Positions 20,681 through 57,002 of a stretch of 64,000 nucleotides of DNA are shown piece by piece. Made by a program: the position numbers and the translations under genes. Under the pieces are notes generated by a model. The model was not told the DNA's origin. It made no database searches and saw only the letters and a program-made list of their open reading frames with translations. Within the stretch, counting starts at the first letter, position 1, and the number at the start of each line of letters is the position of its first letter. Source of the stretch: Eledone cirrhosa (lineage: Eukaryota); contig OZ024763.1 in NCBI GenBank assembly GCA_964016885.1, forward strand, positions 24,614,001-24,678,000. Direction: 5' to 3'.

Positions 20681-20727
20681 TGCTCCGAAGAATACAAACC
20701 TCGGTTTGGAGGAAACAGCTGTAAGCA
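20681..20727 (+). ncRNA. Type I hammerhead, U4C core variant (right arm of ~200-bp inverted repeat 20114-20313/20569-20769)
   Basis: tgct CCGAAGA atacaaacc tc ggtttggag GAAA cagctg TA agca. Confidence 0.7.
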
Positions 20728-27894: not shown

Positions 27895-28503
27895 GTCAGG
27901 TCGCCAGTTGGTGCTACTGGTAACATGTATCCCAGTACAACCTGTCCCATGGTCGGGTCGTTGGCGACTAAACTGGCAACCCCACCAAGGTTTCTTGGTG
28001 AGGAGGGTGACTTTGGACATCCTGCAGGACTAAAAACAAAACCTGTCAAAGGGCAAAGGAGCTCTTAAGAGTCAATGGCCATCCAAAATCACCGGGAGAG
28101 ATGACCCCTTAGCCTTTGTCAAGGCAGAATTCTAGGAGAAGGAAAACTCTGATATAACACCTGCAACCCTGATGGTATCCAATGATGTTGACTTGTTCTT
28201 CTTTTTGGTAAATATCATCTTGGTTAAGAGAGTGGGACTGGCTTTGTGCAGTGCCTTTGCTCACTATAAAAGCTTCACGGCACAGGCATTGCTTTATATC
28301 TGGAGATCTCTCTACACTTGTCGTCACATGGTACCATGGGCCCAGCACTATGTGTCAGTAATTGTCACAAGTGTAGTGTTTGTACCAGAGTTTTCAAGTC
28401 GCTGGCTGGACTAAAAAGTCACACTCGTTCAGCGCATCGGTAGGGGTTCTCCTACATGGATATAAAGTAGTGGCCGTACTCGAAAACGAGTTGGCAGCCA
28501 CCA
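27895..28503 (+). mobile_element. Non-autonomous bipartite RTE-derived element, copy 1
   Basis: RTE 5'UTR-like CTAGGAGAAGGAAAACTCTGA joined to a 3' end encoding [25 protein letters not shown] (C2H2). TATG/TA flanks; near-identical copies at 36894 and 45414. Confidence 0.75.
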
Positions 28504-28523
28504 TGTATATATATATGTATACT

Positions 28524-28566
<43 letters not shown>

Positions 28567-28574
28567 GCATATAA

Positions 28575-28614
<40 letters not shown>

Positions 28615-28648
28615 AGATTTGAATGGATACAGTTTAGTTGAAAGGAAT

Positions 28649-28765
28649 TTATTGACACGTGTTTCTATAACAGTTACATAACCTAAAACAGCTATCTACA
28701 AACTTTTAGTTATGCAGACATTCAATATTTCAATGTTATTGTTTACTGTCATTTCATCAGAATAA
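28649..28765 (-). ncRNA. Type I hammerhead with 70-nt loop II insertion
   Basis: Minus strand reads ttatt CTGATGA a atgacagt [70 nt] actgttat a GAAA cacgtg TC aataa: stem I 5 bp, stem II 8 bp, palindromic stem III, GUC site. Confidence 0.75.
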
Positions 28766-29136
28766 TATTACTGAGGACCTATTTAGTTTTTATAGAGAAT
28801 ATTAGGAGGAAGGGGTGAAGTTGTTAGAAGAATAGTTGAAGGAGTGGTTTTTCGATAGCAGTGAGAATTCTTGGTGGCAGTGATTAATTAGATTCCCATC
28901 TGTTGTTTTGACATTTTTTATAGAATATATTATTGGTTATTTTTCTAAATCTATAGAAGGATTAGAGATAGTAAAGATATGCGTGGTTGGTTTTGTGTTT
29001 GCACTTAACATTCAGACTTAAATTTTTCTTTCAAGTGTACGTATTCTTTCACCCACGCATTCACACACAAATATATTTGCACACCTCTACAAAATACTAT
29101 ATATATATAGGAAAATATATAGTCCATATGGACTGT

Positions 29137-29232
29137 ACCCCTTGATAAGTTCAGCTAGACTACTACTGTCCTAACATTACTGGGTTAGTTCAGATCTAGC
29201 TGTCGAAACGGCCGGAGCTCAGCCGTCGGGGT
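29137..29232 (+). ncRNA. Full-length family B hammerhead, U3-A8 variant with extended stem III
   Basis: acccc TTGATAA gtt cagctaga [35 nt] tctagctg tc GAAA cggc cggagctca gccg TC ggggt. Confidence 0.75.
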
Positions 29233-29484: not shown

Positions 29485-29545
29485 TTTCATTTACCAGTGG
29501 TTTCTTAAAAGCAAAAAAATTTGGCTTTCAATCATCAGAATGAAA
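29485..29545 (-). ncRNA. Type I hammerhead ribozyme in a ~110-bp island between (TA)n tracts
   Basis: Minus strand reads tttcatt CTGATGA ttgaaagc caaattttttt gcttttaa GAAA cca c tgg TA aatgaaa: 7-bp stem I, 8-bp stem II. Confidence 0.85.
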
Positions 29546-53591: not shown

Positions 53592-53713
53592 TCCACTGAT
53601 GATTTATAAGTGCCCACCTACATATATTCCTACGGACTATGTGTAGGCTTCTGCATGACCTGGACATTATTTTCCCAACTTGTAGAAAACTTATAATGAA
53701 ACAATTGTTTGGA
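53592..53713 (+). ncRNA. Type I hammerhead with 77-nt loop II insertion
   Basis: tcca CTGATGA t ttataagt [77 nt] acttataa t GAAA caattg TT tgga. Confidence 0.75.
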
Positions 53714-56940: not shown

Positions 56941-57002
56941 TTTTATCTGATGAAAGCGCACGCAAAATTGCTTTTGTTGCCCTTGAAATATATATAATAA
57001 AA
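56941..57002 (+). ncRNA. Type I hammerhead (family C)
   Basis: ttttat CTGATGA aagcgcacgcaaaa ttgc ttttgttgccctt GAAA tatata TA ataaaa. Confidence 0.8.

Follow-up and report, generated by a model that had tools for sequence, protein, structure and literature searches.

What does an insertion of 70 nucleotides mean for a predicted hammerhead ribozyme whose core is otherwise complete? The question is raised by the minus strand of positions 28649–28765 in a stretch of 64,000 nucleotides of the Eledone cirrhosa genome, the whole of which is here termed the window. What the motif is and what kind of element carries it are nearly certain, and far surer than the function of the inserted arm, for which several explanations are weighed below.

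A type I hammerhead motif with a predicted extension of helix II

The motif is of type I with an extended helix II, and a covariance model covers it from 28648 to 28766. In the order of the minus strand, on which all of its parts lie, it runs UUAUU, CUGAUGA, A, one strand of an 8-bp helix, 70 nt, the partner strand, A, GAAACACGUGUC and AAUAA. UUAUU (28761–28765) is the 5′ strand of stem I and pairs with AAUAA (28653–28649), while the core sequence CUGAUGA (28754–28760) has C3-G8 intact. The 5′ strand of the proximal helix II (28745–28752) pairs with its 3′ strand (28667–28674, against 28752–28745) in eight base pairs with pair probabilities of 0.78–1.0, and the insert lies between the two at 28675–28744. 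GAAA (28665–28662) and the palindromic stem III ACACGUGU (28662–28655) together occupy 28655–28665, and next to them is C17 (28654), the predicted cleavage site at GUC, placed by hammerhead convention. The stretch 28612–28653 comprises the 3′ strand of stem I and a tail of 42 nt that reaches the 3′ end of the element, probably where reverse transcription starts. CUGAnGA, GAAA, UH and C3-G8 are all present, and the sole departure adjoining the core is at 10.1/11.1, where A28753 faces A28666; the A·A of the window copy stands where G10.1-C11.1 is usual and where older subfamilies have A-U. A sequence-only reading, which named neither a strand nor a host element, had described complete core nucleotides and three stems around a GUC site, and each of these (stem I of 5 bp, stem II of 8 bp, the palindromic stem III) has its place on the minus strand.

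Helices I (5 bp) and II (8 bp) can form around the core, with helix I open; in the lone motif the pair probabilities of stem I are 0.02–0.04. Helix III is not stable in a single copy, an active-like monomer having −19.0 kcal/mol against a minimum of −24.9 kcal/mol, and the duplex of the palindrome with that of a second copy has 8 bp and −10.3 kcal/mol.

In the window motif 88 nt separate CUGAUGA from GAAA. A genome search with CTGATGA-N75-100-GAAACACGTGT gives 2,784 matches and its reversed control none, which argues that the motif is not due to chance. A second pattern with other stem III sequences has 7,487 matches against 21 in the control; long arms are common in this genome. The descriptor for the minimal hammerhead (min-HHR) allows 3–10 nt for loop 2 in the supplement of PMC4209133, far fewer than the 70 nt found here. 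Rfam reports no hammerhead at the gathering score anywhere in the 64-kb window and none near the motif (28550–28900) at E values up to 10, so that all of the long-arm motifs of this window are missed; no other credible Rfam family appeared either, the matches falling on TA repeats. The expectation that standard short-loop descriptors would overlook this architecture is thus borne out. With the two patterns taken together (2,784 and 7,487 matches), the published descriptor excludes some ten thousand hammerhead motifs in a single genome, and because Rfam too misses those of the window, ribozymes are probably undercounted in genomes of this kind.

The host element

The motif is carried by the 5′-truncated 3′ end (a pLTR fragment of ~486 bp, 28612–29097, minus strand) of what its sequence features indicate is a young, high-copy Hydra-clade Penelope-like element (PLE), lying between TA repeats. 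The stretches flanking the fragment on both sides match other repeat families at many loci. The fragment has no ORF and no ORF match, and no second copy is present in the window; its alignment of 495 bases with the 3′ end of a full element at another locus, L031, shows 99.8% identity. There, hammerhead copies 3,580 bp apart enclose an ORF of 773 aa, and the hammerhead is present in both repeats, as in the minimal hammerheads of PLEs, with which it also shares a palindromic 15.2-16.2 segment, here ACACGUGU. At about 2010–2400 of the same locus, between ORF and hammerhead, there is a (TA)/(TG)-rich microsatellite tract with several donor-like words, GTAAGT or GTGAGT.

The 773-aa protein is of the RT/GIY-YIG kind, with the motifs RVRWKT, KADKTS, CNCTYPDNC, YYVG, CKLC and CRH, and these correspond to the RWK, DKT, CxCX5C linker and C-terminal GIY-YIG with CxxC and CxH that are given as Hydra-clade features in PMC8557442. 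No CCHH endonuclease motif was seen by eye in the ORF. Insertion at (TA)n agrees with the clade. The repeat unit of 3,580 bp exceeds the length of <3 kb that is general for Hydra PLEs, a tendency in that account and not a criterion (PMC8557442). The protein has 296 relatives at E values up to 1e-20 (7,996 candidates scored), with 31–43% identity among the 120 listed. Pfam returned no family for the ORF, and a PDB sequence search with it gave weak matches at most (E 0.47 or worse); a structure predicted for a Hydra relative, P0003, and not for the protein of the window family itself, has telomerase reverse transcriptase as its best match (E 3e-9).

A 289-base query gave at least 44 matches in its own genome (3.0 Gb searched), all of those listed being 100% identical (40 scored of 453 candidates), and several of these matches form pairs ~3.6 kb apart. 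The youngest subfamily has 1,269 exact matches in the genome. In 433 matches a U precedes GAAA, and the 100 of these that were listed are mostly older forms. The commonest distance from cleavage site to (TA)n in the window family is 42 nt, and the ATG of the element is 210 nt past the cleavage site. The window copy itself is most likely a passive by-product.

Structure and recurrence of the arm

Folded alone, the 70-nt insert has −16.5 kcal/mol (z −3.05; 5 of 500 shuffles are as stable), and helix II plus insert has a z score of −4.47, reached by 1 of 500 shuffles; for a 161-nt stretch with flanks the signal is weaker (z −1.89). Since most of the 70 nt are paired in the prediction, ‘loop II’ is better regarded as an extension of helix II, which the folding models depict as an irregular rod. 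Its lower motif has AC-AUU (28732–28736) on the 5′ strand, paired with or facing UAG-GU (28685–28681) on the 3′ strand, the latter resembling a splice acceptor too. In the upper motif G-AAU (28720–28723) faces UAG-C (28694–28691), and an apical hairpin that differs between families (28695–28719) closes the rod. In the youngest subfamily, which has the A·A at 10.1/11.1, 4 nt of the middle helix are missing through loss, and all four motif triplets are retained. A likeness by eye of the insert to a duplicated ribozyme 3′ half (ATTGAAA...TGTC) was rejected, the alternative fold having no partner for stem I.

The loci examined yielded 136 distinct sequences with 70–101 nt between the core halves, and these were grouped into 35 families. 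Two small motifs about 7 bp apart recur, each with ANU on the 5′ strand and YAG facing it on the 3′ strand. Both anchors, located by sequence and spacing alone with a descriptor composed after inspection of the data, are present in 18 of the 35 family representatives as against 32 of 3,500 shuffles. One or both are missing in the other 17 families, many of which are single old copies, and neither is present in at least three long-arm families of multiple copies, among them the families of two other motifs of the window, 53596 and 55331. Since the representatives of these two lack the ANU/YAG anchors, there is more than one long-arm design.

Pairing was counted in the eight families that have a single unambiguous parse. 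For the proximal helix 42 of 56 cells are paired, as against 28.5 in shuffles (0 of 5,000 reach this count). Below the lower motif the two pairs form in 14 of 16 cells (41 of 5,000 shuffles), and at its upper end the middle helix has 19 of 24 paired (16 of 5,000). Its lower end is not significant, with 16 of 32 paired and a shuffled mean of 14.4. Covariation was assessed in an alignment of 17 copies from six sister clusters with the window family left out. RNAalifold predicts the middle and apical helices from it unaided, with compensatory change at 6 of 8 pairs. The named structure is paired at 81.9%, as against 69.2% in shuffles (0 of 500, in controls that, like the other shuffles, ignore relatedness) and 34–38% when it is slid along the alignment. 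For the middle helix the figure is 91.4%, and 4 of its 7 pairs show double changes; the two measures based on numbers of pairs or of pair types are weaker, being equalled in 37 and 48 of 500 shuffles. Helices I and II covary in the sister families. A covariance model built without the window family finds the window motif with 37.9 bits (E 1.1e-5), the best short-arm match having 29.8. The two closing pairs of the lower motif swap among families (AC/GU, GU/AC, GC/GC, AU/AU) and the first loop is 15–30 nt from the core, most often ~18–20, pair types and loop-core distances coming in part from a relaxed parser that misplaced several families.

Long arms are found 350–970 nt behind ORFs that are only 32–58% identical to the 773-aa ORF, so that the motifs have outlasted deep divergence. 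Pairing of stem II, on which the sequence-only reading had staked its case, is retained across families, as the proximal helix and the covariation in sister families attest. The length of 70 nt which it gave for loop II stands, while its being a loop is not supported. Of the two roles that it had offered for the insert, ‘accessory domain’ is apt, as the insert folds and has motifs conserved across diverged families; ‘cargo’ does not suit a predicted rod that extends helix II.

Short-arm relatives and known hammerheads

How far does the long arm extend among related elements? A metagenome scan with a single protein gave no relatives among 95 candidates, and one with an alignment as query gave 77 loci that encode Hydra-like proteins. 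In two scans 49 of the 77 have a hammerhead, all with 10–29 nt between the core halves; the other 28, some of which may be incomplete loci, gave none in these scans. The covariance model has 12 matches on the metagenome loci, all 41–58 nt long. The long arm is thus not general in the Hydra clade. In a quick tree of the reverse transcriptases, unrooted and with long branches, the six long-arm families with usable ORF pieces, all from one genome, are on one side of a branch and 32 short-arm rows on the other (SH-aLRT 99).

With the Hydra-clade hammerheads of PMC8557442, including Hydra-1_Obim, the motif shares a type I core near the 3′ end, an unpaired N·N beside the core and a short, often palindromic stem III, and the elements have (TA)n insertion and protein motifs in common. 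Loop 2, however, is 3–10 nt in all Hydra rows of its File S2, as against the 70-nt insert here, and those rows have no long arm, whereas the window motif has two conserved internal loops (PMC8557442). The longest loop 2 in the whole of that file is the 34 nt of a spike-moss PLE-X, and mismatches at 10.1/11.1 are common among its Hydra rows (PMC8557442). The min-HHR of Cervera and De la Pena (2014, PMC4209133) has the same pLTR location, a palindromic 15.2-16.2, a helix I of 4–5 bp and a proximal helix II of 7–8 bp, and cleavage by two copies is predicted in both cases; it differs in its loop 2 of 3–10 nt and its G10.1-C11.1, in place of which the window motif has 70 nt and A·A.

PAc, a Poseidon element of Anolis, likewise has a pLTR hammerhead and insertions that end a short tail downstream, and it is a precedent for help by the protein of the element, yet it belongs to another PLE clade and by the positions given its arm is short (PMC11167929). 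In PAc a start codon stands where stem II begins, with the cut site 26 nt further on (PMC11167929). The discontinuous Clec2 hammerhead resembles the present one in being interrupted by a long insertion, but there the insertion is of several hundred nt and in the 3′ UTR of a host gene, whereas here a compact covarying rod is part of a retrotransposon (PMC6765202). A PLE hammerhead with an arm of 70–100 nt and conserved internal loops did not turn up among the open-access papers searched. Terminal-repeat hammerheads of PLEs were already known; the arm of 70–100 nt with conserved internal loops is a real new variant.

What the arm may do

The reading favoured here, to which we would give about an even chance, is that the rod with its two ANU/YAG loops is a handle by which the reverse transcriptase of the element binds. 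A covarying rod that bears conserved, purine-rich loops is a typical place for protein contact, and it is these features together with the PAc precedent that favour a handle over the alternatives, in descending order contact within RNA alone, a tolerated extension, a promoter element and an intron. As stem III would not form in a motif by itself, two copies would have to pair via the palindrome for cleavage to occur, and two-copy cleavage has been described for PLE hammerheads (PMC4209133, PMC6765202). Insertions end ~42 nt past C17, which suggests a template that is intact at the cleavage site, either uncut or re-joined, and copying would then start just 3′ of the arm. By gripping the non-canonical loops of the arm the protein would select the RNA, place the start site or help the ribozyme to fold. 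For PAc it is reported that the hammerhead cleaves only with the protein of the element, that uncut RNA is the main insertion substrate and that reverse transcription begins at an internal site of the RNA, a stem-loop downstream of the hammerhead (PMC11167929). Counting against a handle are the Hydra elements with arms of 10–29 nt (49 of the 77 loci), which imply that the clade does not need the arm, and the youngest subfamily, which has spread well with its middle helix eroded and its 10.1/11.1 pair lost.

The same loops could act without protein, docking onto helix I or onto a partner ribozyme and so stabilizing or damping the two-copy fold, the arm standing in for the contact that loop II makes in canonical hammerheads. 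Natural hammerheads do use contacts between loop II and stem I (PMC3088659), the loop sequences are conserved, and a need for help in folding follows from a stem I that is barely formed in the lone motif and an active-like monomer ~6 kcal/mol above the minimum; yet at 15–30 nt from the core the first loop would be far away for contact with a 5-bp stem I, and the short-arm Hydra hammerheads share the core without having such loops, which leaves this a rather unlikely account. Somewhat less probable still is that helix II grew once in the lineage and merely stays paired well enough for the core to close, the shared loops being inherited leftovers. The position of the six long-arm families on one side of a branch in the quick tree would agree with this, as would the free variation of the apical part and the eroded middle helix of the youngest subfamily. 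It accounts poorly for unpaired triplets that persist while neighbouring pairs compensate, behind ORFs of 32–58% identity, and for the shortened copies of the window family, which have separate breakpoints and none of which has amplified.

Part of the constraint might instead be on DNA, if pLTR promoter elements, a bZIP-type site for instance, lie within the arm region, and this we think improbable. The candidate is the near-palindrome GTTATGTAAC (28673–28682, minus strand), which we take to resemble a bZIP (D-box) site. A TTAYGTAA-like site 14–16 nt before GAAA occurs in 7 of the 35 representatives as against 61 of 7,000 shuffles, with a pattern chosen after inspection, and it is missing from an older subfamily of the window family; PLE promoters are indeed located in the pLTR (PMC6765202), but a DNA site leaves the compensatory base pairs unexplained. 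Very improbable, finally, is a spliceosomal intron with GU after AUGACA and AG before GUUAUG, whose removal would leave a compact helix II, and equally so its variant in which the AG of the insert is the acceptor for an upstream intron. In its favour, GUAAA stands at the 5′ side in the young subfamily and UUUUCAG-G at the 3′ side in older ones, and PLEs do have pLTR introns, that of D. virilis abutting a hammerhead (PMC4209133). Yet the older subfamilies, though the AG is kept, have the poor donor GUUGA, the YAG is explained as a loop motif common to other families, and the spliced form is found in none of 57 short-arm matches. Nor is an upstream donor joined in any of the 30 copies examined out of 36 without the acceptor G, all 30 having point changes, truncations, inversions or small rearrangements. 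Contigs from four runs of unrecorded kind show no joints along the pLTR–5′UTR–ORF start, a result that is silent on splicing. Since PLEs keep their introns when they move, the lack of spliced genomic copies is weak evidence.

To go beyond the handle as such is more speculative. We suggest, tentatively and with more doubt than belief, that one Hydra lineage built a protein-recognition domain into helix II of its ribozyme and that the reverse transcriptase uses it in a telomerase-like manner, switching the ribozyme on or off. If this were true, a telomerase-related reverse transcriptase would select its template and set the start of copying by way of the arm, as telomerase does with RNA arms. 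How Penelope-like reverse transcriptases recognize RNA and what their hammerheads do are open questions according to PMC8557442 and PMC11167929, and a small motif kept across deeply diverged families near the putative start of copying is a definite target for binding and cleavage assays.

Other hammerhead motifs

The window has two further long-arm hammerheads, at 53596–53709 on the plus strand and 55331–55208 on the minus strand, with 95 and 105 nt between the core halves. Motifs with short or medium arms (14–32 nt) are at 29538, 4280 and 20199 on the minus strand and at 56947, 59728 and 20685 on the plus strand; the cores at 20685 and 20199 read CCGAAGA, and these two motifs are divergently oriented, ~490 bp apart. 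On the plus strand at ~28400–28500 and 29140–29215 there are hammerhead-like remnants as judged by eye, with GAAA, flanking helices and a degenerate CUGAUGA. Elsewhere, loci such as L127, L126 and L129 represent hammerhead families with 45–60 nt between the core halves and GATCGAT-rich internal motifs, and a 52-bp tandem array of small hammerhead motifs (G000:C20:26368729-26368990) is retrozyme-like. At L118 (G000:C4:272382128-272382171) a copy of an older subfamily has had its entire insert deleted between two TAAC words, with a compact helix II as the result; it adjoins an intact inverted copy and constitutes a natural arm-less control.
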